Source: Octopus vulgaris (Eukaryota). From it: 64,000 bases of DNA. Positions 3,420-52,393 of the stretch are shown piece by piece. Both the position numbers and the translations under genes were made by a program. The stretch spans positions 8,308,001-8,372,000 of the forward strand of contig OX597815.1 of NCBI GenBank assembly GCA_951406725.2, written 5' to 3'. Below the pieces are notes generated by a model. That model saw nothing but the letters and a program-made list of their open reading frames with translations. It was not told where the DNA came from and searched no databases. Position 1 is the first letter of the stretch; the number at the start of each line of letters is the position of its first letter.

Positions 3420-3454
3420 GTTTCTGACGAAGAGCTCCGCTCGAAACGTTAAAT
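3420..3454 (+). ncRNA. Minimal type I hammerhead ribozyme motif (Penelope-like element type)
   Basis: gttt-CTGACGA-a-gagc-tcc-gctc-GAAA-cg-TT-aaat; palindromic stem III (AACGTT). Confidence 0.6.
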
Positions 3455-3957
3455 CTTCCTTTTTTCTTTCCTTTCCTGAACGTCCAATAACACTATACTT
3501 GTTCCACGTCCTCGCGTTGTTGTGTTTTCTCTTTGTGTTTTCATGTTTGGATTAACTTTACACACACACACACAGTTAGAAAGATGTGATATGAGAGAGC
3601 TTTAGTTGCTATTTTTAGCCACGCCTAGAGACCTCTTCATTGATCCATAGTAACAGTGATAGCAGTGTGATTGTGAAAGTGTCACGTTGAAGCCCGGTAT
3701 CTCGTCATGCTTGTGTCACTCGTATCATACCTGATAAGATTCAAGTTAAGACATCTAAACTACGCAGTGATCAATGGTGCGTGGAAGACAGCTGCCATAC
3801 AGTGTATGAAATAGATGTCACGTGTACACGCGCGCGCCCACGCTCACACACACATACACATACCACACACACACACCATATCTATATGTATATCTATCTG
3901 TCTGTCTGTCTGCCTGCCTGCCTGCCTATCTGTCTGTCTGTCCGTCCGTCCATCCAT

Positions 3958-4005
<48 letters not shown>

Positions 4006-4739
4006 AGGCGCGTGGCTTAGCGGTTAGGGTGTCAGCATCACGATCGTAAGATTGTGGTTTCGATTCCTGCACGTTGCTCCAGTCCACTCAGCTGGCAAAA
4101 ATGAGTAACGCTGCGATGGACCGGCGTCCCGTCCTGCTGGGGAACACATACGCCATTGAAACCGGGCCCATGAGCCTGGATAGGCTTTAAAAAGGGCGCA
4201 TTTATATATATATATATAAGTTGTTATAATGACGTGAAGCCAAACTGATATTTTGAAATCATTTAGTACGTACATTTCAGGTTTACGTAATATTTGACTA
4301 GAATGGAAAATTCTAGTACCGTACTCCACTACTTAGCGTAACACGAAATAATGTATGTATGTGTGTGAGCGAGCGTGCGTGCATATAGAGGAAATTGAAA
4401 ATTCATACTTTGCTATTCCCTGTTTTATGGTTCCGATCTTCAAGCGGCTATGAAAAACGGAACATAATAATAATAATATATACTAGATATAAAGTGAAGC
4501 TGTTTGAGTACCGTAAAAAGCAACAAGTACTGATTTGATAAAATAGAGCAAAAGGACACACACACACACGTACACATCCATCCATCCATACGTACATTCA
4601 CATACACGTACACAAACACGCGCGCGCAAACAGTATCTTCTATCATTTTCTCATTAATTATGATGCAATGGCGGCCTGAACAATCCGGAACAGAATAAGA
4701 GGACGGAAATTACCAACAGACAAAGTTCATTATATTGAG

Positions 4740-5115
4740 ACTCCAAAGAATATTTAGTGGCACTGAAAAATTAAAACAACATCCAAGTTAAAACACAACT
4801 GGCCTGATATTGACCACAAGAAAAGATATGCTTTGTTGAGAAAATTAGCTCCTGGACACCAGTGTGGTTAGAAAAGTAGAAGAGAAAGAAACGTCTGTGG
4901 ACCATTAATACAGAGTTTGCAAATCTAGTATCTTGGAGACAGTTTTGTATCTGTTATTATTGCAGCAACGGGGTACGTACCAACTCGCTTGGTGCAACGT
5001 ATGGCTGAACTTCGGCTTCAGGGGTGAATAGTACAACTCTTTAATTCATGTGCAACAAATAATCACGATATCTGGGGCAATAAGAATTTGCAAGAACATT
5101 TGGAGATTTAAAGGG
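4740..5115 (+). mobile_element. Decayed restriction-like-endonuclease (R4/Dong-type) LINE C-terminus
   Basis: frameshifted peptides KIKTTSKLKHNWPDI ... KVEEKE ... VIIAATGYVP ... ISGAIRICKNIWRF. Confidence 0.55.
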
Positions 5116-5219
5116 TGATTTACAAAACAGAAGGCTTTCCTTCCCGACATTGCTATCAAGCAAGCAGCCGGTCAAAATTAACTCTAAATTATAGTGAATA
5201 AAAGTATGCATGCATGCAT

Positions 5220-5880
5220 GATGGCTGCCCCTTCGTTATCGAGTATGGCCATTGCACGAAGCTTAACTGTTACTGGTGCTGTGATCGAATGTGACTTTTT
5301 AGCCCAGCTAAAGATCTACAATGTCTTGTACAAAGTTGGCAGCTAAAACCTTTCCTGGCAATAGCCGGCTGTAGTTGTAACTGGGCTTCATGTACCTTTG
5401 CATGTGGTTTAAGTCCTCCTGCCGAATTACACTCTCTTCCACATGCTCGACAGATTTGATTAGTATGGTGTGTTACACCACCACCAGTGGCCAGGTTGTC
5501 ACTCATCTGTCTCGCTTTAGGACTACGAAGATGACTCTTGAGTCCAGCTTTACTGAAGCAGGGTCTTGCACAGACACTGCATGTCAGCATCATAGGAAGA
5601 CCCTTCCTATTTGGAAGTGTAACAGTGATGCCCTTCCTGACATCCCTCCTTACTTTCTCATGTGCAACTCGTGATTTCTCAAAAGTAGCTGTCCCCTCGT
5701 GCACAATACTTCTCTACCCGCTACGATCAATAGCCATGCCCTCCCATGTGTCAGGAGAGATGCAAGCATCTCTTAAGGAAGCCTCTCTTAAGGAAGCCTC
5801 TCTTAAGGAAGCCTCTCTTAAGGAAGCCTCTCTTAAGGAAGCCTCTCTTAAGGAAGCCTTCAGCAAGTCCTTATACCTCT
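5220..5880 (-). mobile_element. 5'-truncated RTE-clade LINE with C-terminal C2H2-like fingers
   Basis: KRYKDLLKASLR...WEGMAIDRSG*RSIVHEGTATFE followed by three CxxC..GL.(S/P)H motifs; 35-bp flanking direct repeat at 5185-5219 and 5881-5915. Confidence 0.8.
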
Positions 5881-6869
5881 TAAATTATAGTGAATAAAAG
5901 TATGCATGCATGCATACATACATACATACATACATAAATTATATAACTGAGTAAATAGAAAACGGCCTTTCTTGCGGCCTTGTAATTAACAGCCTTGTAA
6001 TTAACGCACGATACTGTTCTAGTTTGATCATTTTTATTAAGGATTTTTCATATTTCCTTATTAACACTTTATGTGTAGTTTGAAATAATAGTGTTCCTGA
6101 ATCCATTAGCACATTAACATTCACATCATCAGAATAAAGAGGGGGTTATAATGACACGTTCGTGCGCTTTGCAGTGGGACACAAATGATCATAGGAATAC
6201 TATTGTAATTGATACTAAAATTATCAACGCCCGATACTAAAGATTATACAACGGTGAATTCTGGTAGATGTCATTATTCATTTGACACGCAATATATCTT
6301 TGTGTTAGCTTTTAGTTTGAATTTTGCGTTTTGTAAAGATGCCATAGTTATTCTCATTTTTTTGGTTATATTTTGTGGATTTTTATATAAAATTTCAGTT
6401 CTAGTATTTCTATGCAATTTTATTTCATGTCCTGTATGATAATGAGGTTGTAATGGCTCCTTGCTGTAAAATGCATAGTCAACCAACGAATGTCCGATAT
6501 AACAGATTGAGTCGTAAATTTTACAATTTACATGTTTAGACTGAAATCTGTATAATACACTGTGAGAAAATACATTTTGTTGTCTCCTACATAGTAGTTT
6601 CGTGTTGACGAGGAGATTTTTTCCCTTCTCGTGTTACTATAATATATTCTAATTATGAACTTGTGATAATATGTGATACATGTATTCTGTTTTATGAGTT
6701 TTTTTAAATGACAGTGTCGTCCATTTTATAACCTGAGTGAGTCCGTCTCTTGTGATATACAATATCTGTGGTTTTTTTGTATTTTTAGTGAATACAGTAT
6801 ATGTTGTGCCAACGTGGTTGAATTTGTCTTTCTGTTGTTTTATAGCCAAGTGTACTAATCTATTAAGGT

Positions 6870-7259
6870 GGGTGGAGCGCAATGGCCCAGTGGTTAGGGC
6901 AGCGGACTCGCGGTCATAGGATCGCGGTTTCGATTCCCAGACCGGGCGTTGTGAGTGTTTATTGAGCGAAAACACTTAAAAGCTCCACGAGGCTCCGGCA
7001 GGGGATGGTGGTGATCCCTGCTGTACTCTTTCACCACAACTTTCCCTCACTCTTACTTCCTGTTTCTGTTGTACCTGTATTTCAAAGGGCCGGCCTTGTC
7101 ACTCTCTGTGTCACGCTGAATATCCCCGAGAACTACGTTAAGGGTGCATGTGTCTGTGGAGTGCTCAGCCACTTACACGTTAATTTCACGAGCAGGCTGT
7201 TCCGTTGATTCGGATCAACCGGAAACCTCGTCGTCGTAACCGACGGAGTGCTTCTCTCT
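6870..7259 (+). mobile_element. tRNA-derived SINE (family D)
   Basis: A box tggcccagtgg, B box ggtttcgattccc; 14-bp TSD taatctattaaggt at 6856-6869 and 7260-7273; related heads at ~4003, 18294, 23503, 29518(-), 30440. Confidence 0.8.
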
Positions 7260-7531
7260 TAATCTATTAAGGTACTCGTTATTAATGATTGTCTGTCGCG
7301 TAGGATTTCCTTGTTTAAAGTTTTTTCAGTGAATGAAAATTCGAATGCTCGTCTATTAACGTATTTTCATTACAGATATTTGGATTTATGAGAACATTCA
7401 CTATCACCGTGCAATTTATAAGCTTTTTGTGTGTGTTCTTTGTATGAGCTAAAGTGCTATATGTATATTATTTCAACATTTATGGTGGTAGTGTTGACTA
7501 AATGTATACTAGAGCTAAATTGAATCATAAA

Positions 7532-7928
7532 TCTCTATGATATAAAGCTGAAGTTGTCTGTGTATGGCAGGTTTGGTAGCCTTCAACTAACACTATCTCC
7601 TCCAAGACCCTGCGGTTCAAGTTGACCAAAATTGAGAGTATGATAGAAGAAGGCTTGCTCTTCCTTCCGTAGAAGAAAAAATTCAAATCGGACCATGTTA
7701 ACACCAAAAATTATTTACATCAAAAAGGTGCTTTTTTCCCTATGAAAATCTCTATTTTTAACGATTTTTTGACTGCTGTGTCGCCATTTTTCGGTGTATT
7801 TCAACCAGAAAACGTTCACTTGAAGAGAATAACAAGCTACATAATGCAAAATTTTTACTTTTCAAAAATTCCAATTCTAAAAGGTCGAAAAGAAAACAAG
7901 TCTGAGCAACGCTGGGCGATACTGCTAG
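7532..7928 (+). mobile_element. Non-autonomous Helitron
   Basis: A|TC...CTAG|T termini, no TSD, subterminal gcaacgctgggcg; second copy at 12909-13274. Confidence 0.7.
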
Positions 7929-9027
7929 TGTAAAGATAGCGTTATTTTCAAGATCTTGAATTTTATCAGATTGTTTGTCGTCATCTGTCACATTGAATAC
8001 GCCAAATGCCATAACGGTTGAAAACGCAGTTATGCCTGGAAGTGACATATTTTTCACGTTAGCCATGTGGAATGCCGCGAATGTGGGCTCGAGCAGTGGG
8101 TCCCATGAATCACTAATGTATATATTATCTCATGGACAGGAAAATCAGTTGTACAAGACAAATGATTGCGTATGGTTTTCGGCCGATTGTGTGTGTGTGC
8201 AGGCACAATTCTTCCCAATTATGAGGTGCTTCTGCGTATAAATTTAGTCAAGTGTCTTCTTCTAAAGCTTCGGGTGACTCAAAGTTAGAAATTTTTTTCT
8301 TTTTATGTGAAAGTGGAAACTGACTGGAAGCCCGTCAATGGATTCTGCTTCCAATTTAAAGGTTCGCTGATTCTAACTCAGGATTATACATTAACAGTAC
8401 GTGTATCGATGGAATACTCAACTAAAATCAGTCCCAATACTTATGCCGAACCATTAAATTATGGAGACGTAAACAAACCAACACTGGTTGTCAAGCGGTG
8501 GCGGGGGGGGCGGGGCGGGCGGGGCGGAGCACAAACACAAATACATATATTCGTACAATCACACACATATATATGTGTGTGTGTGCGTGCGTGCGTGCGT
8601 GTGTGTACAATGTGCTTGCACACACTTTTCACCTACCAAACTTACTATCTCTTTATTGCCCACAAGGGGCTAAACATAGAGGGGACAAACAAGGACAGAC
8701 AGCCGGATTAAATCGATTACATTGACCCCAGTGCGTAACTGGTACTTAATTTATCGACCCCGAAAGGATGAAAGGCAAAGTCGACCTCGGCGGAATTTGA
8801 ACTCAGAATGTAACGGCAGACGAAATACCGCTTAGCATTTCGCCCGGATTGCTAACGTTTCTGCCAGCTCACCGCCTATACCAAACTTACTTACAAGGCA
8901 TTGGTCGGCTCAGGGCTGTAGTATAAGACGCTTGTCGAAGGTGCTGCCCCGTGGGACAGGACCCGAAATCACGTGATTGCAAAACGAACTTCTTAACCAC
9001 ATTGCTATGCCTGCCTCCTCTCTCTCC

Positions 9028-9072
<45 letters not shown>

Positions 9073-9254
9073 GAAGGATTGAATATGCGACTGGCATATT
9101 TCACACCTTTCCTGAGAAGAGTCCTTACTGGAAAGAGGCCAAAACAACCCCTGTATACATTGCCCAACTACCCGATCAGATGAAAATATACGTCTGCGGC
9201 CCTATGTGGCGTATAAAATCGCATGTAGCAAATGTAATGAATTCTGCCATTTAT

Positions 9255-9662
9255 GGCAGACACCCATAAAATTATTAACCATCTTACAAACAATCACTCT
9301 GAGCACCTTTTTAAACTCCGCCTGTCTAACACCCGTGGACATGTTTACAAAGTCAGAAAACAGCACAGCTCCTTCCATGACTTTCGGAAACATTTTTTCA
9401 CGCTGAGAGTTGCTGAAGCATGGAACAAACTGCCGGCATCAGTTGTTAGTTGTCGGAGCACTGCATCCTTCAAACCTTCCATGCTTCCTGAGATTCACCA
9501 ACACTACACCTGATCTTTCTCCCCTCCTTACACACACAGGCATGTATCTGACTCATACACTGTTCACTTTCCAGACATTTGTACATTTCTGTATATACTT
9601 TATATGCACTTTTGACAAGTTGTGGTGCACCTGAGCACTGTATACAATGATTTCATTATTAT
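9255..9662 (+). mobile_element. CR1-clade LINE 3' fragment
   Basis: ADTHKIINHL...TRGHVYKV...RKHFFTLRVAEAWNKLP, 3' UTR and (TTA)n tail. Confidence 0.85.
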
Positions 9663-10331
9663 TTTTACACCAGAAGACTCATCAGACAAGTTTACATAGG
9701 AATGAAGGAACAACCTCTATGCTAATGTTTCTTCTGTCCAAAAACACCTACAGAAAATTTCTACAATCAAAACACCCAAGTTTCCATTGATGTTACTGCA
9801 AGAAACATTAGGAACTTTAGAATTAAAACGGTTACTTTTAATTAGCAATTACATCCCGCGACTTAATAATAGAATCTGAACTGAACGAAGCCTATTTGGA
9901 TAGTATGGCAACGCAGAACAATCCTTCACACACGCACACGCACTCACGCGTGTGTGTATAATCTCTTCTGAAGCAAAACATTTGTGGCTGTCCCTCTTAT
10001 CAATACTTTAGCTTCTCAATACCTGGCATAAAGCCATCTTCACCCCCCTCTACTACAACCCCACTTGAGAGGGCGCCTTCTTTATCTGTGTCTTGTTAGT
10101 TACTTGGCAACCTTACTAGTGCCAATGTCAAGGAAAGTGGCAATCAATACAACTCTGTAACGTGGTTGGCATTAGGAAAGGTATCCAACCCCTAGAAACC
10201 ATGTTAAAACGGGCATTGCAACAGCTCGACGTAATAATCCGCTTCATTGAACCCCACAAAGCGGTCCGAGTCATTGTAGCATGGAAGACGGGCGTTAAAT
10301 GAAAATATAGTCTCGTTTAAGAGACGTATAA

Positions 10332-10363
<32 letters not shown>

Positions 10364-12405
10364 CTATAGGCTTGACTGTGTGGTAAAATGTTTGCTTCCC
10401 AACCACCGTTTGACAACCGGTACGGGTGTGTTTATGTCCCTGTTAATTAGCACTTTGGCAAAAGACTAAAAATTCTTGAAGGTGGTGCTCCAGCATGGCC
10501 GCAGTCTGATGACCGAAACGAGTAAATGATAATGTATATATATATACTCTTTACTCTTTTACTTGTTCCAGTCATTTGACTGCGGCCATGCTGTAGCACC
10601 GCCTTTTAGTCGAGTAAATCGACCTCAGGGCTTATTCTTTGGAAGCCTAGTACTTATTCTATCGGTCTCTTTTGCCGAACCGCTAAGTTACGGGGACATA
10701 AACACACCACCATCGGTTGTCAAGCGATGTTGGAGACGGACACACACACACACACACACACACGACAGGCTTCTTTAAGTTTCCGTCTACCAAATCCACT
10801 CACAAGGCATTGGTCAGCCTGAGGCTATAGTAGAAGACACTTGCTCAAAGTGCCACTCGGTGGGAATGAACCCGGAACCATGTGGCTGTGTGGTAAAGGA
10901 GCTCTGTTTGCGACTACGCGGTTTCGGGTTCAGTGTCAATGCGCAACACATATGGTAAATATCTTCTACCTTAGCCCCAAGCCGATTGATTCCTTGTGAG
11001 TGAATTTGGGTGACGGAAACTCCGTGGAAGCCCGTAGTATGTGTATTCGTCTCCCTTGACCACCAGTGCTGGTTTGTTTATGTCTCCGTAACCTAGCAAT
11101 TCGTCAAAAGATACCAATAAAAATAAGTACTAGACTTAGTAAAATAAGTAGTGGAGGGGTGGGGCGATTTGTTCTACTAAAAACCTTCAGTGCAGTGCCC
11201 CAGCATGGCTGCAGTCCAATGACTGCAAGAAGAGAATGTATATATATATATATTTCTTTACTATCCACAAGGGGCTAAACACAGAGGGGAAAAACAAGGA
11301 CAGACAGAGGGATTAAGTCGATTACATCGATCTCAGTGCGAAACTGGTACTTATTTAATCGACCCCGAAAGGATGAAAGGCAAAGTCGACCTCGGCGGAA
11401 TTTGAACTCAGAACGTAACGACAGACGAAGAAGGTGTATATATATGCTGTGTACTCGCGCACGCGTCTGCTTAATTTCCCCTTTCAAATTACTCAGAAGA
11501 CACCACACACAGAAATTAAAAGAAAGAGTGAAAGAAAATAACTTCAATTCAATGTTATATATATATATAATATAAGATGGCGATAATTTTCGTTGATACA
11601 AGTTTTATATATAATTCCAGCAGCAAGCCAATTTGTTTCGTCTATTTATTTCAAAACTGTTCATTTTCAACTGTGTCTCTCGTTCTTTTAAACCTCTCCT
11701 TTTCTCTATATATAAATCTCTCTCTATTTGTAGGATACGTTGATGATTACACTTCGATAATGACAAACTATTTAACTTGCACCATTCTACTATATATACT
11801 GTCCAATCTCCTACTTAATTCACATGTATCCAGCAACGACTGTCTCTTTAACCGCAATCATTATATTAAATTACTTTACATTTCAAATGTTTTTCTATTA
11901 GCGAAGCTTTATCGTTCCATCAAAATCAACTTCAATCCAACTTTAATCGCCATTTAACTAAATGTTTCTAGTCAATTCTCGAACTTTCTTTTATCTTTTA
12001 GTCCTTTGATGTTTCAAATTTGAATTTCAAACGAACATAAATAGCAGCCATTTTGCCTTCTTCCCTTCTGTCTTATTTTTCTTTTTGTCTTGCTTTCATT
12101 CTTACGTATTCTCTCTTTAAAACGCTTTCTCTTCTTCATTTCTCTTCTCTTTCCTCCTCTCTTGCACTCTTTCCAATATGATGTTTGCTTTTATGCCGTT
12201 TCTCTTAGCGTTTCTTTCTTTTTCTTCTCCATTTTTTTTCTTTTTTTCTTTTCATGTCATTTCTTCTTTCTGAAAACTATTTGTCTTTGATGTGGTTTTG
12301 GCAATGTTGCAAAGTTATTAGAGAAGGTGTGTCCTTAAAGTGGAAAATTAATTGGGCGGTTCTCCCTCCCTCCTTCTCTCTCTCTCTTTCTCAAAACGCA
12401 CACGT

Positions 12406-12454
<49 letters not shown>

Positions 12455-13274: not shown

Positions 13275-13407
13275 TTAATAGTAAGGTGGAATATGAGGAA
13301 GATTTGGCATTTGTTTTTAGTGGTTCGACGAGCAGGTGTTAAACTGTATGTGTTTGAAACAATGGACAGAAGTTAAAGTGACGGTGTGTAAACGAAATGC
13401 TGGTGGA

Positions 13408-13447
<40 letters not shown>

Positions 13448-13460
13448 GGGGGAGGGGTAT

Positions 13461-13694: not shown

Positions 13695-13738
<44 letters not shown>

Positions 13739-14850: not shown

Positions 14851-15543
14851 TTGTATTCTCGATCATTATATATTTTGGATGCCTTCTGATGGGCAGGCTT
14901 TGATCCTGTCCTGAAATCAAGATTCCTTATACCTATTTCTTTATTACCCACAAGGAGCTAAACACAGATCGGACAAACAAGGACAGACATAGGTATTAAG
15001 TTGATTACATCGACCCCAGTGCGTAACTGGTACTTAATTTATCGACCCCGAAAGGATGAAAGGCAAAGTTGACCTCGGCGGAATTTGAACTCAGAACATA
15101 ACGCAGACGAAATACCTATTTCTTTAATACCCACTGGGGGCTAAACACAGAGCGGACAAACAAGGACAGACATAGGTATTAAGTGGATTACATCAACCCC
15201 CAGTGCGTAACTGGTACTTAATTTATCGACCCCGAAAGGATGAAAGGCAAAGTTGACCTCGGCGGAATTTGAACTCACAACGTAACGCAGACGAAATACC
15301 GCTTAGCATTTCGCCCGGCGTGCTAACCTTTCTGCCAGCTCGCCGCCTAAGATTCCTTATACCACCATTCCTCCATCTGTCTCTTCCTCTCCTCTCCTGC
15401 CTTCTCATTTCCTTACTGTATCAGTATGTATGTTTAACTGTCTATCCATTCCATTTCTCTATCTCTCTCTCTTCTCTCTCTCTCCCTCCCGCCCTCTTCC
15501 TTTCTCTCCCTCTCCATCACCATGTGTTCCATGATATTTACAG

Positions 15544-15904: not shown

Positions 15905-15948
<44 letters not shown>

Positions 15949-34957: not shown

Positions 34958-34990
<33 letters not shown>

Positions 34991-34992
<2 letters not shown>

Positions 34993-35418
34993 CATTATTA
35001 AATCTCAGAACGAGATGTAAACAGTAATTGCTCGACAATGTAAAGTATAATAGCCATCTCAATATGGCTAACCACAAAAGGGGGTGTTACTGTAGCTTTT
35101 TAGCCCCAGGAGATCATCGTCTCCAGCTGGCTGTAGGCACACTATCTGTGCCCTTATGGTATTTGCAAAGGGAGGCCATCCCTTTCTCGTAAGCCTAAGT
35201 GATACGCACCGGACCGCAGTTTCGAGGTTATTGCCTCTTATCAACGGGCGGTAATCACCGGATCACGATGAAAGAAAAAGCCTGTTTGCAAATATATAAG
35301 AGTTTTTTGTAGTGACTCCTGCCACTGATTTCGCAAAACTGATTTCGATGATCTCCTGGGGCTAAAAAGCTACAGTAACATCCCACTTTGTGGTTAGCCA
35401 TATTGAGATGGCTATTAT

Positions 35419-35424
<6 letters not shown>
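34991..35424. mobile_element. Penelope-like inverted-repeat insertion in (TA)n
   Basis: 79-bp inverted arms at 35041-35119 and 35346-35424 (3 mismatches) enclosing a hammerhead motif. Confidence 0.6.
35205..35250 (-). ncRNA. Hammerhead ribozyme motif, U3-A8 core variant
   Basis: minus strand: cgcccg-TTGATAA-gagg-caataa-cctc-GAAA-ctgcgg-TC-cggtgcg. Confidence 0.6.
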
Positions 35425-35586: not shown

Positions 35587-36627
35587 GAGTGTATTTTTCC
35601 CTTGTATTTTTCTATATACCAGTGTAAAATCATTACTTATAATAAAGTACGATATTACATTCTGAAAGCCATGGAAGGAGATGTGCTGTTTTCTGACTTC
35701 GTAAACATGTCCACGGGTTTTAGACAGGTGGGGTTTGAAAAGGTGCTCAGAGTTATTGTTTGTAAGATGGTTAATAATTTTATGCGTGTCTGCCAAGTCA
35801 GCTGCCAGACGTCGGAGTTTCAATGTATCCATGCCCAGGGAAGTAAGGCGTTCAGAATATCTAAAGCTCTGTTGAGCCCCTAGTGTAAAACTGCTTGGTA
35901 AGATTGGCTGTAATGGATATATAATACTGCACAATTTGATTAACACACACACACATGCGTAATAGAGTGATCACTACAGATGAGCTTTTATTCCAAGTGG
36001 AATTAGCTTGCTAGTATGGTGACCTTGCTCGCTGTGGGACAGTTATCTCCCCTGTCAGTGCATAGACAATGTGCTTTTTGTGGCTAAGCACGCCGAGCGA
36101 AATGCTTAGTGGTATTTCATCTGTCGTTACGTTCTGAGTTCAAATTCCACCGAGGTTGACTTTACCTTTCATCCTTTCGGGGTCGATAAATAAAGTACCA
36201 GTTACACACTGGGGTCGATGCAATCGACTTAATACTTATGTCTGTCCTTGTTTGTCCCCTCTATGTTTAGCCCCTTGTGGGTAGTAAAGAAATAGGTATT
36301 TCGTTTGTCGTTACCTTCTGAGTTCATACTTTTAGGGTCGATAAATAAAGTACCAGTTTCGCACTGGAGTCGATGTAATTGACTTAATCCCTTTGTCTGT
36401 CCTTGTTTGTCCCCTCTGTGTTTAGCCCCTTGTGGGCAATAAAGAAATATATAATGGTCTTTGACTCTTGTTTCTAGCAATGTAGGTGCTATCCTACACC
36501 CTCAGTCACTATTAGTGACAATTGTATTTTTCATTTTTAGTTTTACACTGTGTCTATTCACCTTTGATATTTTAAGTATATATATATATCTAATATAAAA
36601 CTTTTCTCCTCCTTTACTCCATTACAG

Positions 36628-39189
36628 GGTCCTATTGGTTATACACCAATATGTCAGTGTATGCCAATCGTGAAGAGAATCGAAAAGAACATGGATGAGA
36701 CGAGGGAGAACCTTTACGAGCACATTGATGCCTCACACCAGATATTACAGAACCGCATCAACCAGCTGGACAAACGGACATCACAGCAGGTTTTCTCTAT
36801 TGATCGTCTTAACAAGGAGAGGTTGAATGCTTCTCATAACCATTGTAAGCAACATATCGACTCTCAGTTCAACCAGCAACGTAAAGATGCTGAGCGTTTA
36901 TATACAAAATACAATGAGAACGTAAAATCTGAACTTCAAGCCTGGCTTGAGACGAGGTTAACTGATGAGGAAAGTTGCCACCCTCATCACCATGACGACT
37001 CGGGATTTTACCATCGAAGCGTTTTCTTTGATGTTGTTGAGAATGAAAACGGTCGGTTGTTTCGGTCGCGTTCCGACGAAACTTTGTCGCAGTCGGACTA
37101 CAGTGTAAGACATCGGAAAAAAGACTTTTATGAAAATCGTCAAGCTGCAATGCAGCAGATCCGTGCTTGGCAAACACCTGACAGGTACAGACGCCGTGAT
37201 AATTATCCTATGAGAGACAACTCTTTGAGACAGTTACCAACTGTATCAGTTAGAAATACAGTAACTGTTCCAGCTGGTCCCAGTATTACTCGTCCCCGCA
37301 CTATGATAGAATGTACATCCCCAAATCAGACATCTTCCTTTAACCCCTCTGCACCTGCAATGGCTCAGCTCTCTTTAGAACCATCACCAAATTCTAAAGC
37401 ATTTGAAAATAGGGCAGTGAAACCATTTACTCCTTCAAAATTAAGGCACTCCATACTTCCCTCTAAAACAAATAGTCCCAATTTACCATCGACTTCCTCT
37501 CAAGGCCTTGCCCCAGGACATTCTTTAAAACACCAAAGCCAGGTAATGCCTCACTTAAGCCATAGTAGTCAGGGCCAAAAGGATGAAAGGCAAAATTTAG
37601 TGGAAAGGGGCCCACCAGAAGTAAGCAAAATGATAGGACCTGAGATGGGCCCCAATAATGTATTTACTTCGAATCAGCCGACACGGAGACAATTTAATGA
37701 AAACCCTTTGGAAAAAGATTCCAAGGAAACAGTTCGGAACCAGAGACAGTTTTTAACCGTTTCTAGTTACTCTGTGACAAAAACTTCTGAAACTCAGTTG
37801 TTACAGACAAAACAGTTTCTCCCCAAATCACCTGCTGCCAAAACCAGCAATGAAGATTCCAATGGAATGAGGCCCCGTAGTCATAGCCAAGACATGCTTG
37901 CTGATTCATCGTCCCGTGACGTAATTCGCGAAAAAAAATGTATAGGTTATTACCATTCTGAACGAACGATGCCATTAGACCGGAGTAAGTCTTACGGTAA
38001 CCTCAAGGAAGAACTATCAGGAACACAGTCTAATAGTGTCACGTTACAGTCAAATACGGCAATGATGTCACAGTACAGTCATCATCAGTCGTATACAGTG
38101 CCAACAGCTTTCAAAACTGCTCCTCCACCAAACTCTGCTTATTCTAACAGCGTCAACCCCACAAAATACACAAGACCTTCCATGGCAGATTCTGCTGCAA
38201 AATCATATGGAAGTGAAGCAAAGCAGTCTCTGCAGAAAGATATGGTATTTTCCAATTCTAGTCAGTCTGTCTGCAAAGAACAGTATCAAAAACAAATGCA
38301 GAAAGTTTTGTCACAGACAGCACTAGACTACACATCCCCTTACAAGAATCCCACACTAGACTACTCTTCTCCTTACAAGAACCCTGCACTAAATCACACA
38401 TCTCCTTACAAGAATACGGCACTAAGCTATCACAGCAATGGTAAGAACATGCTAGGGAACCAACAGATGGGTAATCCTAATGTCAATGACACTGTCAACC
38501 CTCTTAGTAGATCAGAGCCACAACTGATGAAAGCAGACAGTTCAGATGGCCACCATTACAGAAACAGTCCAACAGCTGTGTCATCAAAAATAGTTTGTAC
38601 ACCAACGAATAACAGTAGTGCAGCAGCTGGTGTCCAAAATAACAGCCACCAAAACCATTGGTCTTCGTCTCCACTGCAGAAATCCAACCCCAAACTCCCG
38701 TCTCCGATGTTAGACTGGTGTCATAAAGAGGACTCCAGCAGCAACCCCGATTCGGGCTATAGCTGTCGTATCTATGGCAACGGAAACAACAGAAGCAGCA
38801 CGTTACTGAATACATCGCACAGCAACACGACAACCCCGACATCTTCGTTTAGTGGAACTGATCAGAGTCCGAGTACAGCGTCCGCCTCTTTACAGCTGTC
38901 ACCTTACAGGGGACAGCTGCAGAACCAAGTGGCCAGGGACGGCTATGATGACCGACAGCCAACTAACAAACAGTATTTCGAGTCAGTCTCAGCTCATCTT
39001 CAGAATTGGTACAGTAAGAAAAAACTAGAGACTTCTCAAAAGGAAGCACCAAAGACTCTTTCACCAACATTATTACAACAACAACACCAGCAACAAATAG
39101 CACCGTCTTTTGGTACAAACAGTCCATATATGGCAACAAATTACCCCCCTACACCAGTGAAAGGCTACATCAGAGGAAGTGATGTGTAG
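36628..39189 (+). CDS. ANKRD6: ANKRD6-like terminal coding exon (853 aa + stop)
   Basis: ttacag|GGT CCT ATT... in frame with the 842-aa ORF; GPIGYTPICQCMPIVKRIEKNMDETRE...QLDKRTSQQVFSIDRLNKERL resembles the ANKRD6 CxC plus coiled-coil region; long S/T/P/Q/N-rich tail; TAG at 39187-39189. Confidence 0.92.
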   Translation, partial: GPIGYTPICQCMPIVKRIEKNMDETRENLYEHIDASHQILQNRINQLDKRTSQQVFSIDRLNKERLNASHNHCKQHIDSQFNQQRKDAERLYTKYNENVKSELQAWLETRLTDEESCHPHHHDDSGFYHRSVFFDVVENENGRLFRSRSDETLSQSDYSVRHRKKDFYENRQAAMQQIRAWQTPDRYRRRDNYPMRDNSLRQLPTVSVRNTVTVPAGPSITRPRTMIECTSPNQTSSFNPSAPAMAQLSLEPSPNSKAFENRAVKPFTPSKLRHSILPSKTNSPNLPSTSSQGLAPGHSLKHQSQVMPHLSHSSQGQKDERQNLVERGPPEVSKMIGPEMGPNNVFTSNQPTRRQFNENPLEKDSKETVRNQRQFLTVSSYSVTKTSETQLLQTKQFLPKSPAAKTSNEDSNGMRPRSHSQDMLADSSSRDVIREKKCIGYYHSERTMPLDRSKSYGNLKEELSGTQSNSVTLQSNTAMMSQYSHHQSYTVPTAFKTAPPPNSAYSNSVNPTKYTRPSMADSAAKSYGSEAKQSLQKDMVFSNSSQSVCKEQYQKQMQKVLSQTALDYTSPYKNPTLDYSSPYKNPALNHTSPYKNTALSYHSNGKNMLGNQQMGNPNVNDTVNPLSRSEPQLMKADSSDGHHYRNSPTAVSSKIVCTPTNNSSAAAGVQNNSHQNHWSSSPLQKSNPKLPSPMLDWCHKEDSSSNPDSGYSCRIYGNGNNRSSTLLNTSHSNTTTPTSSFSGTDQSPSTASASLQLSPYRGQLQNQVARDGYDDRQPTNKQYFESVSAHLQNWYSKKKLETSQKEAPKTLSPTLLQQQHQQQIAPSFGTNSPYMATNYPPTPVKGYIRGSDV

Positions 39190-43151: not shown

Positions 43152-43559
43152 TGTTCACATCTGTTAATCCACCATGTTCATGTGGATAGTCCACATCACA
43201 ATCCACCCTGTTCACATCTGTTAATCCACCATGTTCATGAGGATAGTCCACATCACAATCCACCCTGTTCACATCTGTTAATCCACCATGTTCATGTGGA
43301 TAGTCCACATCACAATCCACCCTGTTCACATCTGTTAATCCACCATGTTCATGTGGATAGTCCACATCACAATCCACCCTGTTCACATCTGTTAATCCAC
43401 CATGTTCATGTGGATAGTCCACATTACAATCCACCCTGTTCACATCTGTTAATCCACCATGTTCATGTGGATAGTCCACATTACAATCCACCCTGTTCAC
43501 ATCTGTTAATCCACCATGTTCATGTGGATAGTCCACATCACAATCCACCCTGTTCACAT
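43152..43559. repeat. 57-bp minisatellite x7
   Basis: unit tgttcacatctgttaatccaccatgttcatgtggatagtccacatcacaatccaccc, near-identical copies. Confidence 0.95.
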
Positions 43560-43948
43560 TTCAGTTCATCCATCCTGTTCATTTAGTTAATTAAATTCAC
43601 CCTTGTCACTTTGTTCACATTTCAATTAACCTTGTTCACTTCAACCGTTCACATTTCAATGAACCCACCCTGTGAACCAAGACAAATCCCAAATCACATT
43701 CCAATCCATCTCGTTCACTTTATTCGCCATCTAACTCCACCTTCGTCACTTAGGCTGGAGGCCATAATTAATTCATCCTGTTCACCTGGACAGGTAGTTC
43801 TAGTTTTGTCTTGTTTTTAACAAAATGTTTGTAAATATTTGTTTGGTTTATCCATTGTTTATTTCTAATTGTTTTTTAAAAATGTATTCATATATGTCTA
43901 TATATATATATATAATGTACTTATATATATATGTTTATATAATGTGTG

Positions 43949-43984
<36 letters not shown>

Positions 43985-44503
43985 CAACTAATAAGGGTGA
44001 GAAAATTGGATACTAATTTAATAGTACATCCATTTAACACCAAGTGGCTTAGTGCATAAAAACCAGGAATACAATAAATTTTATACATAAATATAAATAT
44101 AAGAGAGTAACCACTATGTGGTCGACTCTAGCACTAAAAATAGATCCGCTAGGTTTCAGCCACAAAGAATTGTTTCCGATGAAAGTTAGCACGACTACTA
44201 GCGCAAACCTAGCAGATCTATTTTTAGTGCTAAAGTCGACCACATCGTGGTTACTCTCTTATATTTATGTATATATATATGTATATATATAATCAAAATA
44301 AGCAACAAGGATATCTAAGGTAGTGTGGTACAATCGTTTCATGCTACTTCATTTTATTAAATTGTACTACACTACCTTTGGATATCCTTGTTGCTTATTT
44401 TGATTATAATCACCCCATTTGATTTATATGGATAATACCATACCAAATTCTGGTGCCTTTAACTTAAGTACCATATTCATCTGAATCTAAATTTTGCTGA
44501 ACT

Positions 44504-44537
<34 letters not shown>

Positions 44538-46624
44538 TAATATATTCATGCACACACACACATATATATATAGTACATACATATTAAAAAGAATGTTTTC
44601 ATATTTTCTACAATTATTATTTTTAAATAAAAAAAAATTGAGAAATTGTTATACCTTGTTCATGTTATTTCTTTGAATGACTGAAATGCCTGCGTAACCC
44701 TTTGATCTCTCTGACCAGATATGCAAACATGTAATGTTCCAAACCATGATGGTAATTACAAGAACACAGTAAACCATTAGCTACAAGAAGACACCATTAC
44801 CACCTGATTAACTTCACTAGTGTGACACCACTGGCCATGTATGGCACGTAAAAAGCACCATCCGACCGTGGTTGTTTGTCAGCCCTGTCTGGCAGCTGTG
44901 CCGGTGGCATGTAAAAAACACCCATTACACTCACGGAGTGGTTGGCGTTAGGAAGGGCATCCAGCTGTAGAAACATTGCCAGATCAGACTGGAGCCTGGT
45001 GCAGCCCCTGGCTTCCCAGACCCCAGTTGAACCGTCCAACCCATGCTAGCATGGAAAGCAAATAGACTAGAAACTAAATAGTGGACATCAGCTCTCTCTC
45101 TCCTATTGGTGCTTAACTATACTGAGATAATGTCTCCCAAGCTGAACACTAGTAGTGTAATTATAAAATATATACCTATGTCTAAATAGCAAGGTGCTTG
45201 CGGTAGTAAGGAATGATGTTGATAATAATCCTATGGGATTGTTGCGGGTGGGGTAGGAAGACATTGCTAGTTGGAGAAATGGCACCCTTAGTGGTTGTAA
45301 TGAAAGAGAAAGAGAGATTTATCTGTCATCATCATCATCATCATCATTATTTAATGCCCATTTTCCTTGCTGGCATGGGTTGGATGGTTTGATCAGAGTT
45401 GGTAAGCTGGAGAGCCACACCAGGTTCCAGTCTGATTTTGGCTTGGTTTGTATGGTTGGATGCCCTTCCTAACGCCAACCTCTTTACAGAATGTGCTGGG
45501 TGCTTTTAACGTGGATTAGCAACAGTTGGGTTAAGAAATATCAAGCAATCTACTGAAGAAGACAGGAAGATATGGTGAAGGCTGAACCTCATGAAAGAGA
45601 TGATAAAGAGCGGCAATAAGCGGCAAAATATAGAGCATAGAAACTTTGCAAAGTGGGCATATGATGATAATGGTGTTAATAATTTTGTATTTAAGCATTC
45701 TGTTGTGTGAACCCAAGGATCATTTATAATCATCATCATCATCGTTTAACGTCCATTTTCCATGCTAGCATGGGTTGGACGGTTTGACGAGGGTCTGGGA
45801 AGCCAGGAGGCTGCACCAGGCTCCAGTCTGATCTGGCAGTGTTTCTACAGCTGGATGCCCTTCCTAACGCCAACCACTCTGTGAGTGTAGTGGGTGCTTT
45901 TTACGTACCACCTGCACAGGTGCCATGCGAGGCTGGCAACGGCCACGATCAGTTGGTGCTTTTTATGTGCCACCGGCACGGAAGCCAGTCAAGGCGGCGC
46001 TGGCATCGGCCACGTTCGGATGGTGTTTTTTACATGCCACCGGCACAGGGATCACAACTACAATTTCCATTGATTTTTGATGTTGATGTACTTGACTCAA
46101 TAGGTCACCTCAAGCACAGGGTCAAAACGGTGTTTCTTTACTTGCCACCTGCACAGGAGTCAGTCCAGCGGCACAGGCAACGACCGGGTTCCAGTCATAG
46201 GATTTGGTTCAATTTCGATTTCACTTGCCCCAACAGGTCTTTGCAAGCAGAGTTTAGTGTCCAATGAAGGGAGGTTGGCATGGGTGCCAGTCGTCAGATG
46301 TGGTTCAATTTCGATTTCACTTTCCTCAACAAGTCTTCACAAGTTCAACAGGTTTTCACAAGCTCAACAGGTCTTCTCATACCAAAACCACAATTAGATA
46401 TTTACTCATCCTTTCAGAAGCACCAATAATTCACAGATCCATGCAGCTAAATCAGACACTATAAAACAAATATGTTATTTTTAAAATGATTTTATTCAAA
46501 AAAAGTTTGAAGTGTACAAGAATTTTTTTTCTTTTAACATATCAAAATTTCATAAATATTTTACAGGGATCACAGATTTCATAAATTCAGAACTAACTTG
46601 ATTGTAGGTGTATATATATATACA

Positions 46625-46854
46625 CACACGGTGCGGCAGAAGTAATGCTTTTTTTTTTTTGCATTTAATAACTTTTATAGCATATAGAAGTTTATTAAGT
46701 AATTTTTTATTGAACACAAATTTATTGCATTAATTAAAGAAATGAATAATAAACGAATGATAAAAATCGCAGAAGTTTTAGGAAATAAAAAAGAAACTCG
46801 ATTAGAAACTGGAAAATCAAATACAAAAGGGTCTTACTTCTGCCGCACCCTCTG
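46625..46854. mobile_element. Tc1/mariner-type MITE
   Basis: perfect 16-bp inverted repeat ggtgcggcagaagtaa at 46630-46645 and 46834-46849. Confidence 0.6.
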
Positions 46855-47785
46855 TGTGTGTGTATATATATAATGAGACTGGATATATATTTATTCACAA
46901 ATATGTTATCAGATAAAGAGTGCATGGGAAAAGACATTGGACAAACATGTAGCTCGATGGAAAGCAAAACAGTCGTTTCATTAACATTCCAGTGTTTGCC
47001 TGATAATGCTTCTTCATACTTCATGCAATTTATAGAGATAGACATGTGTTATATATATATGTATATATATATACAAACACATATATACATGTATTTCCAT
47101 TTTGTATTTGGTTTGCAAGATTCATGTGAATTCTTGTGTTGAAGCATATTTTATTGTGTCTAGGGAGAGAATGACTCTCCCCAGACAAAATTTTATATAT
47201 ATATATATAATTCACATACACATGTGTATGTATAATGATCTGTATTATGTGTAGAAAATAATAAAATATATACACATTCATGTGTATGTGTGTCTGTGTC
47301 CCACAACCCGAAGTAGAGTTCAAAACAAATAGACTAGTAACTAAATAGTGGACATCAGCTCTCTCTCTCTCCTACTAATGCTTAACTATACTGAGATAAT
47401 GTCTCCCAAACTGAACACTAGTAGTGTAATTATAAAATATATACCTGTGTCTAAATAGCATGGTGCTAGCGGTAGTAAGGAATGATGTTGATAATAATAA
47501 TACTATGGGACTGTTGGGGGGTGGGGCAGGAAGACATTGCTTGTTGGAGAAATGGCACCCTTAGTGGTTGTAATGAGACAGAAAGAGCTGGGTAGTCAGT
47601 CTGAAGAGAAGGCTTTGTGAGTCATCTAGTGAGTCCCCTTTGTGAGTCATCTGGTGAGTCACCTTTGCGAGTCATCTGGTGACACAACAAAGGGTGATAT
47701 GTAAAAAAATATATATAACAGCAGCACCAAGTTGTCAACGTTCTGCTCCTACAACTAAGCACAATCCTAAGTGCTAAGGTTCAGT

Positions 47786-47906
47786 CTAAAGACCTTCAAT
47801 CATTATGGCCGAAGCACCACCACCACCGTTACAGATTCCAGCAACTCCAAGTTCTCCAGGTTTCAGGTTCAATGCCATCCTCCCGGTGATTCGGGTTCCA
47901 GACATT
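47786..47906 (-). CDS. ACAT1: ACAT1-like last coding exon with the second catalytic Cys
   Basis: 121 nt; [39 protein letters not shown]-stop. Confidence 0.94.
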
Positions 47907-48354
47907 CTGCAAAGACAAAAATTTTGAGGGGTGAAGTTTAATTAATTACATTGATCTTGGAAAAATACTGCGAGACATTTTTATTTGGCAATCTAACAAT
48001 TCTGTCAATCTAGGACCCTAATAATAATAATGATGATGATAGTTTCAAGTTTTGCTGCAAGGCAGCCATTTTGGGGGAGGGGATGAGTTGATTACATCAA
48101 CCGCAGTGTATCACTGGTACTTAATTTATCGACCCTGAAAGGACGAAAGGCAAAGTCAACCTTTGATTCTTAGATGAACTAATAAAATAAAAGACTGAAA
48201 TGAAACTATGTCAAACAAAGTTGACATATCAAGGAGAACGTACATCAACAAGAACTTACACTCTTAAGAGTATCTCTAAAGGCAACCTATGAGGGTCAGT
48301 TTGTGTGGTAAATAAATTGTGAGGGTGAAAAAGAAAGAAAAGTGTGTTTCTTAC

Positions 48355-48512
48355 CCGATTGGGTGGCCCAAACTAACGGCACCACCATGAATGTTCACTT
48401 TGGCCGGATCAAGACCCATCAATTTGTTGCAGGCCAATACAACCACACTGAATGCTTCGTTTATTTCCCACATTGATATGTCAGATACATTCTTACCAAA
48501 CTGGGCCAAAAG
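48355..48512 (-). CDS. ACAT1: ACAT1-like exon with NEAF and GHPIG (catalytic His) motifs
   Basis: 158 nt; [53 protein letters not shown]. Confidence 0.94.
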
Positions 48513-49679
48513 CTGAAAAACAAAACAATAAATTTGTAAAATTAAGCTTACTGGCCTATTGACCACAGGATCATAAGTTCAAATCTTACTATTGTCTTAA
48601 TATCAAAATGTCTGAGATAATTTGCCATTTCATCATCATTATCGTTTAACATCCGTTTTTCCATGCTAGCACCGGTTGGACAGTTTGACCGGGGTCTGGG
48701 AAGCCAGGCGGCTGTACCAGGCTCCAGTCTGATCTGGCAGTGTTTCTACAGCTGGATGCCCTTCCTAACGCCAACCACTCTGCGAGTGTAGTGGGTGCTT
48801 TTTACGTGCCGCCAGCACAGGTGCCAGGGGAGGCTGGCAATGGCCACGATCGGTTGGTGCTTTTTACATTCCACCGGCACAGAAGCCAGTCAAGGTGGCA
48901 CTGGCATCGGCCACATACAGATGGTGCTTTTTATGTGCCACTGGCACAGGTGTTAGATTATAATTCCCAGGGTCTGGGAAGCCATATTTTACATATTTGG
49001 AAGCTGCTGAACTAGTGACCACATAATGATCAGTTCAAAATATAAAAGTTCAACCATTGTATTGTGTAATGAGGCAAAACACCATTCGAGCGTGATTGTT
49101 ACCAGCATTGCCTTACTGTGCCGGTGGCATGTGTAAAAGATTCGAGCGAGGTCATTGCCAGTACCACTTGACTGGCCCCGTACTTGAGAAGCAAACTTCT
49201 TAACCACACATCATCATCGTTTAACGTCTGCTTTCCATGCTTGCATGGGTTGGATGATTTTGACTGAGGGCTGGCAAACCAGATGGCTGCACCAGGCTCC
49301 AATCTTGATCTGGCAGAGTTTCTACAGCTGGATGCCCTTCCTAATGCCAACCACTCCGAGAGTGTAGTGGGTGCTTTTACATGCCACCAGCACAGGGGCC
49401 AGTCAGGCGGTACTGGCAACGACCTCGCTCGAATCTTTTTACACATGCCAATGGCACAGGTGCCCTTTTATGTGCCATCTCGTAACTAAGATTTCAATAA
49501 TATGATTGCTTATTTTTTTAGAATGACATTGTAGGTTAGGTGTGAAAGGTCAGATCTGGCCAGTTTGAACATAAACCATGTGAAATATCTAGGTCTTTCA
49601 TGGGCAAGTTTATAAACTAAAGGGTTAATCTGAAGACAAAACCTCAATTATGATGAAGTGAATGAGTCAAAAATGTTAC

Positions 49680-49744
49680 CTTCTCCATGGCCACAGCTGG
49701 GGCTGTTGGGAAATCAATTGGGTTCTTGGCAGCATCAGCAAAAC
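49680..49744 (-). CDS. ACAT1: ACAT1-like exon
   Basis: 65 nt; FADAAKNPIDFPTAPAVAMEK. Confidence 0.92.
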
Positions 49745-51396
49745 CTGAAAGTATAGGGATAATTTGAGCCAATGAGACATTCTGTGTTGATATCAATACA
49801 CATCAGTCATACACAGTAACAACAACAACAACAACAACAAAACAACAACCTTAGGAACATGGCTGCAGGCATGGCCGAGACATTTGCTTTATAGTCATGT
49901 TGCCAAAGTTCAATACTACTCTGCAAGGGACTTCTGCCATAGCCAGCTCCAAGCTGACCAATGCCTTGTGAATGGTATTTGATAGATAGGTGCTTTGCAG
50001 AAGTCTACTGTGCGTGTGTAGATAAGGGGTGAGCATAACCAAGTCTTGTGCATGATTTTTCTGCATTCCTTTGTCGTCTTTCTGTTGATGTTTTACTCTT
50101 TTATATATTACTCCATTGCTCTTTCACTTGTTTCAGTCATTTGACTGTGGCCATGCTGGAGCACCGTCTTTAGTCGAGAAAATCGACCTCCAGGACTTAT
50201 TCTTTGTAAGCCTAGTACTTATTCTATCCGTCTCTTTTGCCAAACTTCTAAGTTACAGGAATGTAAACACACCAGCATCAGTTGTTAAGCGATGTTGGGG
50301 GGACAAACACAGACACACAAACATATACACACACATACATATACATATATATACATATATACGACGGGCTTCTTTCAGTTTTCATCTACCAAATCCACTC
50401 ACAAGGCTTTGGTCGGCCCGAGGCTATAGTAGAAGACACTTGCCCAAGGTGCTATGCAGTGGGACTGAACCCGGAGCCATGTGGTTGGTAAGCAAGTTAC
50501 TTACCACACAGCCACTCCTACGCCTATTATATAGATATATGTTACATTATCATCACTTTTTCTTTTATTACCTTCTTGGTATGTTTTCCCTGAAGGAACA
50601 GAGGCAAGAGAATAGCAGGGACCCTTTCCTCTTATAGGGTACAAAGCTATTTCCTTAGTGCCAATAGCACAAGGGAATGCGTACACTACCATTGTAAAGT
50701 GAAAGGTGTGTTACATGCAAAGTGTTCCACAAGATCTTCAGATAAATTGTACTGTTTATGACACTCTTGATTTGATGTATAGGACCAACCTCTTTTCCAC
50801 AAATGCAACCTAAAACCCTAACATTACGAGCATCACACCTATTTGTTTACTACCCACAAGGGGCTAAACACAGAGGGGACAAACAAGGACAGACAAATGG
50901 ATTAAGTCGATTACATCGACCCCAGTGCGTAACTGGTACTTAATTTATCGACCCTGAAAGGACGAAAGGCAAAGTGGACCTTGCCGGAATTTGAACTCAG
51001 AACGTAGCGACGGACGAAATACCCATTTCTTTACTACCCACAAGGGGCTAAACACAGAGAGGACAAACAAGGACAGACAAACGGATTAAGTCGATTACAT
51101 CGATCCCAGTGCGTAACTGGTACTTAATTTATCGACCACAAAAGGATGAAAGGCATAGTCGACCTCAGCGGAATTTGAACTCAGAACGTAACGGCAGACG
51201 AAATACAGCTACGCATTTCGCCAGGTGTGCTAACGACTCTGCCAGCTCAGCGCCTTTCATTCATTCTATACAAAAATGTGGAATGGTCATGATCAGAATA
51301 AATTTGGTGATGAGTTTGTTGGATCTGGGTTGACTTGGGCCTAAACAATAACCACAACAACAATAACGAGATGTTAGGAAAAGAAGAAAGTCTTAC

Positions 51397-51510
51397 CAAC
51401 AATTCGAGCCAGTGGCTTCACCTTTAACCTGTCGGCTGCCTGTGCTGTCATGAGAACCATAGCAGCAGCACCATCATCTAATTTGCTGGAGTTAGCTACA
51501 GTCACGGTAC
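51397..51510 (-). CDS. ACAT1: ACAT1-like exon
   Basis: 114 nt; [37 protein letters not shown](G). Confidence 0.92.
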
Positions 51511-52067
51511 CTGAGGAGAAAAACAATGTTATAGAGAGTACCAATATGGCAGTGTTGAAGAGTAGCAGTACAGTGTTAGATGCAGTAGAACTAATATCAC
51601 TAGAAGAATCAGTTTAATATCCACAATACTAATTTAAGGTAAAAAAACGGTACTAACATATTGCTATCTGCACTACTAACACTCTATCATCTGCAGTGCT
51701 AATACAGTGGCTCCCAGCAACTGTACCAATACAGTGTTTACCGGGAGTATTAATACAGTCTTCTGTACTTTTAATACAATAGTTATTTGCATTATAAACA
51801 CAGTATCATATGCAGTGTTAATACAGTGGCATTTACAGTGCTTACACACTGAGGTCAGTGTCTTCAACAATGTTAACATATTGTCAACTGCAGTGCTAAT
51901 ACAATAGGCATTTGCATTGCTTATACAGTGTTATTTACCATGTTATCTACAGCAGTGCTTCTCAAACTATCTGATGTGGTGTACTGGTAGTTTTTTTTTT
52001 GCAATGTACCAAGGACCGGTAATATCTCTTAGTAATACTAATTTATACAGGAAACAATATAAATAAT

Positions 52068-52393
52068 TACGGAGATGTACTTGCATAGCAAGTGACCTGA
52101 TCTGAGATCGTGTGCTGGAACGAAAGCAATTGCAGCGTGGAAGGTGTTTATAAGCCATTTAAGAAACACACAAAAACCGTTAGATTCACTTCAACATTTA
52201 AATTTAATTTGTCAAAATATTTTTGCCGCTTTGAGACTGCGACCTGTTCATTGACAAAATTCCGTGCTGCAAAATTCAGTGAACAGGTCGTGGTCTCAAA
52301 GCGACGAAAATATTTTGACAAATTAAACTTAAATGTTGAAGTGAATCTAATGGATTTTGTGTGTTTCTTAAATGGCTTACAAACACCTTCCGC
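52068..52393. mobile_element. Penelope-like inverted-repeat insertion nested in the hAT MITE
   Basis: 14-bp TSD acaatataaataat; ~116-bp inverted arms at 52139-52254 and 52276-52391; hammerhead-like motif. Confidence 0.6.
52276..52318 (+). ncRNA. Hammerhead-like motif, G3-C8 core variant
   Basis: tca-GTGAACA-g-gtcgt-ggtctcaaa-gcgac-GAAA-atat-TT-tga; palindromic stem III AATATT. Confidence 0.45.

Follow-up and report, generated by a model that had tools for sequence, protein, structure and literature searches.

A G3-C8 hammerhead motif in the 3′ terminal part of a young Octopus vulgaris Penelope-like element, and its C3-G8 and U3-A8 neighbours

Penelope-like elements (PLEs) carry minimal type I hammerhead ribozymes with an extra nucleotide that separates position 9 from 10.1, a G10.1-C11.1 pair and a palindromic stem III, located in the terminal repeats of elements that are found mostly as solo truncated copies and as opposite-strand pairs (Cervera & De la Pena 2014, PMC4209133). 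Exchange of the core pair C3-G8 for U3-A8 was reported as covariation in the Cercyon PLEs of Schistosoma (about 1,300 hits; PMC4209133), and natural U3-A8 cores are known among other hammerheads, together with a U15.1-A16.1 variant (Perreault et al. 2011, PMC3088659). We describe three hammerhead motifs in a 64-kb stretch of the Octopus vulgaris contig OX597815.1 (the window, meaning the whole stretch that was analysed). One of them, motif 3, has a G3-C8 core and belongs to the 3′ end of a young PLE, named here family 3. It shares the traits listed above and differs from the published minimal hammerheads by its G3-C8 pair, not reported in the sections accessible, as well as by a 6-nt palindrome and a 7-bp stem I. 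The same core pair exists in engineered C3G/G8C hammerheads (of an anole Penelope element, PMC11167929; G3-C8 variant in PMC3884650), but these are laboratory swaps of partial activity; in family 3 the pair occurs naturally and is fixed in old as well as young subfamilies.

The three cores were found at the sites and on the strands given in a preliminary description of the window:

3420..3454, forward strand: motif 1, minimal type I hammerhead with C3-G8 (core CUGACGA at 3424), an extra A before stem II, the stem III palindrome ACGU and a predicted cut after U3450.
35199..35258, reverse strand: motif 2, type I hammerhead with U3-A8 (core UUGAUAA at 35244), a 4-bp stem II with a CAAUAA loop, a palindromic stem III, a bulged stem I of about 11 bp and a predicted cut after C35212.
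52276..52318, forward strand: motif 3, minimal type I hammerhead with G3-C8 (52279/52284; core GUGAACA at 52279), an extra G, a 5-bp stem II, the palindromic stem III AAUAUU and a predicted cut after U52315.

Their common type I topology was confirmed with a descriptor that leaves positions 3 and 8 free (stem I of at least 3 bp, NUGANNA, optional extra base, stem II of at least 3 bp, GAAA, palindromic stem III, UH). It has exactly three matches with a Watson-Crick 3-8 pair in the window and none with another combination; 100 local dinucleotide shuffles of the window gave 0.06 +/- 0.24 matches and none reached three. All three motifs were missed by Rfam, as no hammerhead is present among its 109 matches at E<=10 in the window. 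No Penelope open reading frame (ORF) was found among the window ORFs. The preliminary description had read the three core pairs as covariation. Because no sequence similarity was found among the three motif-bearing elements, the pattern inside the window is not covariation in the strict sense; the claim does hold for homologues elsewhere.

The wider distribution of the motif was surveyed in 80 evenly spaced 10-kb tiles, an unbiased 800 kb, which yielded 26 matches: 14 C-G, 6 U-A, 2 G-C, 0 A-U and 4 other. These are 22 Watson-Crick versus 4 other matches, compared to 1.6 in all in shuffles, 0.25 of them Watson-Crick. As seven of the C-G matches form one array and the two G-C matches one element, the figures correspond to 15 versus 4 independent elements. 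A non-canonical 3-8 pair is carried by 8 of the 22 Watson-Crick matches. The assembly comprises 2.8 Gb; 40 candidates were scored and 30 fetched per family, and the 3-8 counts of the families refer to fetched copies after removal of three duplicate loci.

Motif 3 is part of a composite element with the following components:

51953..52580, no strand assigned: host element, a hAT-like miniature DNA transposon with the 8-bp target duplication ATCTACAG and the family 3 insert inside.
52066..52270, reverse strand: family 3 left arm, the 3′ end of a PLE with a tail of about 57 nt; its ribozyme is broken (G3 to A, G12 to A).
52276..52393, forward strand: family 3 right arm, an inverted 5′-truncated copy without tail; the arms of 116 nt are 92% complementary and their junction varies between copies.

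We take the host element to belong to the hAT group from its end motif and the length of its duplication. The transposon with its Penelope insert was copied as a composite, since the same arrangement occurs in loci L031-L034 (at least four loci). Stem I of motif 3 measures only 3 bp here, the inversion junction having removed part of it, compared to 7 bp in intact copies. In the window the ribozyme has probably lost its function: G3 and G12 are gone from the left arm, the right arm misfolds and retains a stem I of 3 bp, and pairing would occur between the two arms. As motif 3 lies in an inverted repeat of 116 nt that is surrounded by a hAT-like element, it might be taken for a chance fold within a palindromic miniature DNA transposon. 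This is very improbable. The hAT flanks are shared by only 4 of 30 family 3 loci and missing from the other 26, the inversion junction differs from copy to copy and the tail of about 57 nt is found on one arm only. An inverted 5′-truncated copy with a tail at one end is the arrangement described for PLEs (PMC8557442). The linkage to an ORF presented below already largely refutes this reading: the unit is the 3′ end of an element encoding reverse transcriptase (RT) and GIY-YIG domains, and ordinary hammerheads occupy the same position behind related ORFs.

Family 3 is abundant. The genome search gave 5500 first-look candidates, the family is present in 6 of the 80 tiles, and a loose G3-C8 pattern has 5275 forward-strand matches versus 1494 for its control, the first 100 matches listed being nearly all family 3; the copies are therefore estimated at thousands or more. 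The 56 arms analysed have the 3-8 combinations G-C (47), A-C (7), G-A (1) and G-G (1), without any C-G, and family 2, to which motif 2 belongs, has U-A in 31 of 32 copies. Several lineages thus have a non-canonical pair as family majority, as had been proposed, neither family consensus is a canonical CUGANGA, and a CUGANGA-based search would miss both the U3-A8 and the G3-C8 families. Single copies do depart from their family (9/56 arms in family 3, 1/32 copies in family 2), as would be seen if the two non-canonical cores were copy-specific decay of CUGANGA. We give this explanation practically no weight; it is excluded by the family majorities, which keep their own 3-8 pair, and the youngest, ORF-linked copies of family 3 are all G-C (19/19).

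The protein partner of family 3 was found by an upstream walk from a marker in its 5′ part (531 exact matches), which crosses a microsatellite-rich tract of about 1 kb and then enters an ORF. The 50 GIY-YIG loci obtained from the Pfam search (30 + 20) had not revealed this partner. A search with the ORF protein gave 8326 candidates, of which 150 were scored, and 20 ORF loci were chosen blind to the ribozyme. One was taken because of its long frame; the other 19 stood high in the list and were not among the loci already examined. The family 3 unit lies in sense about 1.0-1.2 kb downstream of the ORF in 19 of the 20 loci, with GUGAACA in 19/19, and the full descriptor with a 7-bp stem I, a 5-bp stem II and the AAUAUU palindrome is matched in 18/20. 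Locus L396 (G000:C25:44299901-44306400, - strand) has an open frame of 1025 aa, an inverted upstream copy and the tail on one arm only. Pfam identifies GIY-YIG at the C-terminus of this frame (E 1.8e-5); in the same search RVT_1 was not matched, and the RT motifs were read by eye. The protein has 198 relatives, and two among the 120 listed carry the source name reverse transcriptase domain protein. Family 3 has the traits of endonuclease-containing (EN+) PLEs, namely an RT + GIY-YIG ORF, 5′-truncated inverted copies, a tail at one end and microsatellite targets. Its motif is the 3′ end of a young PLE with an RT + GIY-YIG frame. Tandem family 3 copies on the same strand were seen only in L391, where three G3-C8 hammerheads are spaced by 2.6-2.7 kb; they have one unusual loop in common and no long ORF between them.

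The closest described elements are the EN+ PLEs of Nematis type (Craig et al. 2021, PMC8557442). Both have a single ORF with the order RT, short Cys linker and C-terminal GIY-YIG, an inverted 5′-truncated copy, a tail on one end and (TA)n targets, and the reduced Cys linker of the family 3 ORF matches by eye the Nematis rows of Fig S2 in that paper. Unlike in these elements, RT motifs A and B′ of the family 3 ORF are 129 aa apart, about 70 more than the 60 aa of a Neptune-type ORF in the same genome. An insert in the RT fingers is ascribed only to Naiad/Chlamys and telomerase in the accessible sections of PMC8557442. The 1025-aa ORF and its relatives possibly form an unnamed clade.

Conservation of the G3-C8 core was assessed on older family 3 relatives, 65-68% identical to the young copies. 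They were recovered by their downstream sequence only; pattern searches with a predetermined core were disregarded for this purpose. From 30 loci, 8 young copies and 7 loci without a recognisable ribozyme region were set aside; 14 of the remaining 15 are readable and comprise 9 G-C, 5 decayed and 0 C-G cores. No ORF was found in the upstream extensions of the old copies. When old copies are compared with young ones, the free position 7 is the sole difference in the core, as opposed to differences in 5 of 8 columns of loop II and 54 of 168 columns downstream. Stem III is palindromic in both (AAUU in the old, AAUAUU in the young copies) and one pair of stem I changes from G-C to U-A. Note that the automatic count was unusable for stem III and for stem I on its 3′ side, where indels shifted the alignment, and these parts were compared by reading. 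Apart from the literal CUGANGA, replaced by GUGAACA, the motif 3 family has the expected core: a Watson-Crick 3-8 pair, U4, G5, A6, A9, G12, A13, A14, A15.1-U16.1 and H17. The lowest-energy fold of an intact copy consists of stem I and stem II with an open core.

Relatives of the ORF were also found at 78 loci of metagenome contigs, and 21 distinct loci (29-46% identity) reach the ORF end. Behind these 21 ORFs the pattern with free positions 3 and 8 matches in 8 loci: 4 C-G, 3 U-A, 1 A-U and no non-Watson-Crick combination (antisense control 0; shuffles 0.11 Watson-Crick + 0.34 other). The A3-U8 case (L429:2798-2850) is tentative, its stem I being 1 bp only. Two further loci were recognised by eye, L416:4967-5030 (U15.1-A16.1 with C3-G8) and L417:2484-2545 (A9C with U3-A8). 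When the 10 metagenome rows were aligned with two G3-C8 rows, the 3-8 combination is Watson-Crick in 12/12, reached by 0/500 shuffles in a test that ignores relatedness (one family contributes two of the rows, and two were picked by eye). U4, G5, A6, G10.1 and the GAA run are also present in 12/12 rows. In four contig sequencing runs no alternative base reached 5% at position 3 or 8; the contigs carry no information on cleavage or expression. The G3-C8 element and the C3-G8 locus L418 share a group that the RT tree does not resolve.

We consider it probable that motif 3 represents the hammerhead of a young Penelope-like family, with the core pair flipped to G3-C8, and cleaves itself slowly as a dimer, likely with the help of the protein of the element, and that motifs 1 and 2 are the C3-G8 and U3-A8 hammerheads of two other non-coding families, likely mobilised by Penelope elements. 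Slow cutting is the likely behaviour predicted for motif 3. Two copies of the same sense would pair through the AAUAUU palindrome, thus building stem III. G12 acts as base and the 2′-OH of residue 8 as acid in the hammerhead (PMC6155905), so that in motif 3 G12 and the 2′-OH of C8 would cut after U17. This activity might trim multimeric or read-through transcripts. The insertion template would be the uncut RNA, since genomic family 3 copies run through the predicted cut site. The short head-to-head copies, including the one in the window, would be 5′-truncated inverted by-products and are likely inactive. In the anole Penelope hammerhead the C3G/G8C swap partly restores cutting, which needs the protein of the element (PMC11167929).

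Several observations weigh against this reading. The engineered swap is only partly active (PMC11167929), and cleavage by metazoan Penelope hammerheads is poor even in dimeric form (PMC4209133). When a dimer of an intact family 3 copy was computed with RNAcofold, the palindromic stem III duplex was absent, and the commonest arrangement observed for family 3 is head-to-head, which would fold back instead of dimerising. G3 is changed to A in 7/56 arms. No motif was found at 11 of the 21 metagenome loci, in some because the contig ends, the shuffle test has the shortcomings stated above, and families 1 and 2 lack a linked ORF. It is conceivable, though rather unlikely, that the G3-C8 motif is a hammerhead descendant in which the fold persists without useful cutting, retained as a folding or protein-binding signal in the element RNA. 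Such a role would fit the run of genomic copies through the cut site, the cleavage-independent insertion of the anole element in vitro (PMC11167929), the spread of Naiad elements without canonical hammerheads (PMC8557442) and the other core departures seen by eye in the close relatives L416 and L417. However, the 3-8 pair belongs to the active conformation and is kept through double changes in all 12 aligned rows, and U4, G5, A6, G10.1 and the GAA run are present in every one of them, which argues against such a role. A broader proposal, held tentatively and with somewhat more doubt than belief, is that a widespread, possibly unnamed Penelope-like clade with a C-terminal GIY-YIG and a long RT fingers insert let its core drift, arriving at all four Watson-Crick 3-8 pairs and at further core changes, being free to do so because the protein of the element props up the ribozyme. 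Family 3 would then hold the first natural functional G3-C8 hammerhead, in thousands of copies.

The literature is compatible with the novelty of one of the two non-canonical cores. Full-text searches returned no natural G3-C8 pair, only the engineered swap, with incomplete coverage of the relevant hammerhead and Penelope surveys and supplements. The natural core variants described in the accessible sections of PMC3088659 share with our set the U3-A8 covariation and the U15.1-A16.1 pair of L416; G3-C8 is not named there. The G3-C8 core of family 3 is therefore a well-supported candidate for a new natural variant, C3-G8 and U3-A8 being already known, and the novelty that the preliminary description implied for U3-A8 was overstated (PMC4209133; PMC3088659). 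Surveys mostly fix C3 and G8, so whole hammerhead families are invisible to them. A natural G3-C8 pair fixed in a young element with open frames would be a natural counterpart of the exchange by which the 3-8 pair was proved. Behind homologous proteins it would complete a matched natural series of C-G, U-A, G-C and perhaps A-U, which allows a direct test of the purpose of Penelope hammerheads, that is, whether selection acts on cutting or on shape only.

A further U3-A8 hammerhead was found in sense behind 12/30 GIY-YIG loci (L121-L150). Its element encodes RT + GIY-YIG in a frame of 781 aa, and the Cys linker, the sole basis of the clade assignment, is of Neptune type. These 12 loci together with L339 and L340 represent a young element with intact 781-aa frames, the hammerhead about 880 nt behind the stop codon and a second frame upstream (250-333 aa). 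The attribution of non-canonical cores to PLE lineages is thus supported for this U3-A8 core and for G3-C8, each tied to a GIY-YIG Penelope-like ORF; no ORF could be linked to families 1 and 2.

Family 2, which carries motif 2, comprises two more features in the window:

34990..35341, reverse strand: family 2 monomer, a body of about 300 bp plus a tail of about 50 nt (34990-35039) of a unit of about 355 bp that occurs head-to-tail elsewhere.
35346..35422, forward strand: family 2 3′ end, an inverted 5′-truncated copy without tail; the arms of 82 nt are 95% complementary.

The genome search gave 3867 first-look candidates. Copies are found head-to-tail (L013, L005/L026), with a period of 354-355 in L005/L013, and with inverted 3′ ends. 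Stems I and II of motif 2 are present in the lowest-energy fold, and because the extended stem I forms there the motif is retrozyme-like. Its assignment to minimal hammerheads had to be abandoned: with an extended stem I and a head-to-tail monomer of about 355 bp it is not a minimal ribozyme of a Penelope pseudo-long terminal repeat (pLTR). The CAAUAA loop presumably resembles canonical type I loops. With head-to-tail monomers of a few hundred bases, one type I hammerhead in each and no ORF, family 2 appears to be non-LTR retrozyme-like. It matches the C3-G8 array L151 over the whole monomer (64% identity over 359 nt, E 5e-28), and its retrozyme kin arrays have units of 359 bp (L151) and 362 bp (L261). 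Among 50 cores of the family 2 clan in the loci examined, 38 are U-A, 11 C-G and 1 U-C. The C-G rows fall in two well-supported groups of the tree, which leaves their mutual relation unresolved. This switching between C-G and U-A is true covariation. Like the mussel retrozymes of 350-390 bp (PMC7229834; bioRxiv 10.64898/2026.07.22.740005), family 2 and its kin have head-to-tail monomers (354-362 bp) with one type I hammerhead each; in contrast to non-LTR retrozymes, the subfamilies of its clan switch between C3-G8 and U3-A8 and many copies are monomers with inverted ends. Loci L268, L275 and L338 seemed to connect family 2 with a GIY-YIG family, a link rejected because the two are separate insertions into shared microsatellites. 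Near-perfect tandem retrozyme arrays are found at L151:2100-4770 (359 bp, C3-G8) and L261 (362 bp, U3-A8), with an inverted block in each. The kin L015, L397 and L404 have C at core position 4 (CCGA), a change common to two copies of one subfamily and possibly a natural U4C variant.

Motif 1 belongs to the remaining family:

3341..3558, forward strand: family 1, a non-coding repeat of about 215 bp in (TA)n/(CATA)n, with shared ends and microsatellite flanks.

There are 2318 first-look candidates of this repeat (40 scored, 93-100%) and 6 matches in the 80 tiles. The core pair is C-G in 30 of 31 copies, and motif 1 fits the published consensus of the minimal Penelope hammerhead including the extra base before stem II (PMC4209133). 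It is an ordinary minimal Penelope-type hammerhead, and the repeat that holds it is probably Penelope pLTR-like. No ORF was tied to family 1, as 1 of the 52 matches examined follows an ORF (L073; no genome-wide search was made), and this candidate was rejected as a separate insertion. Another C3-G8 minimal hammerhead family is present in L170, L217, L222 and L073; its remnant in L073 follows a broken Poseidon-like RT/GIY-YIG frame.

The window also contains an open frame of 873 aa at 36568-39189 (forward strand), probably a large host exon and unrelated to the hammerheads. Two dimeric copies of a 184-bp repeat, which belongs to a very common short element, are located at 14929-15300 and 50837-51206.

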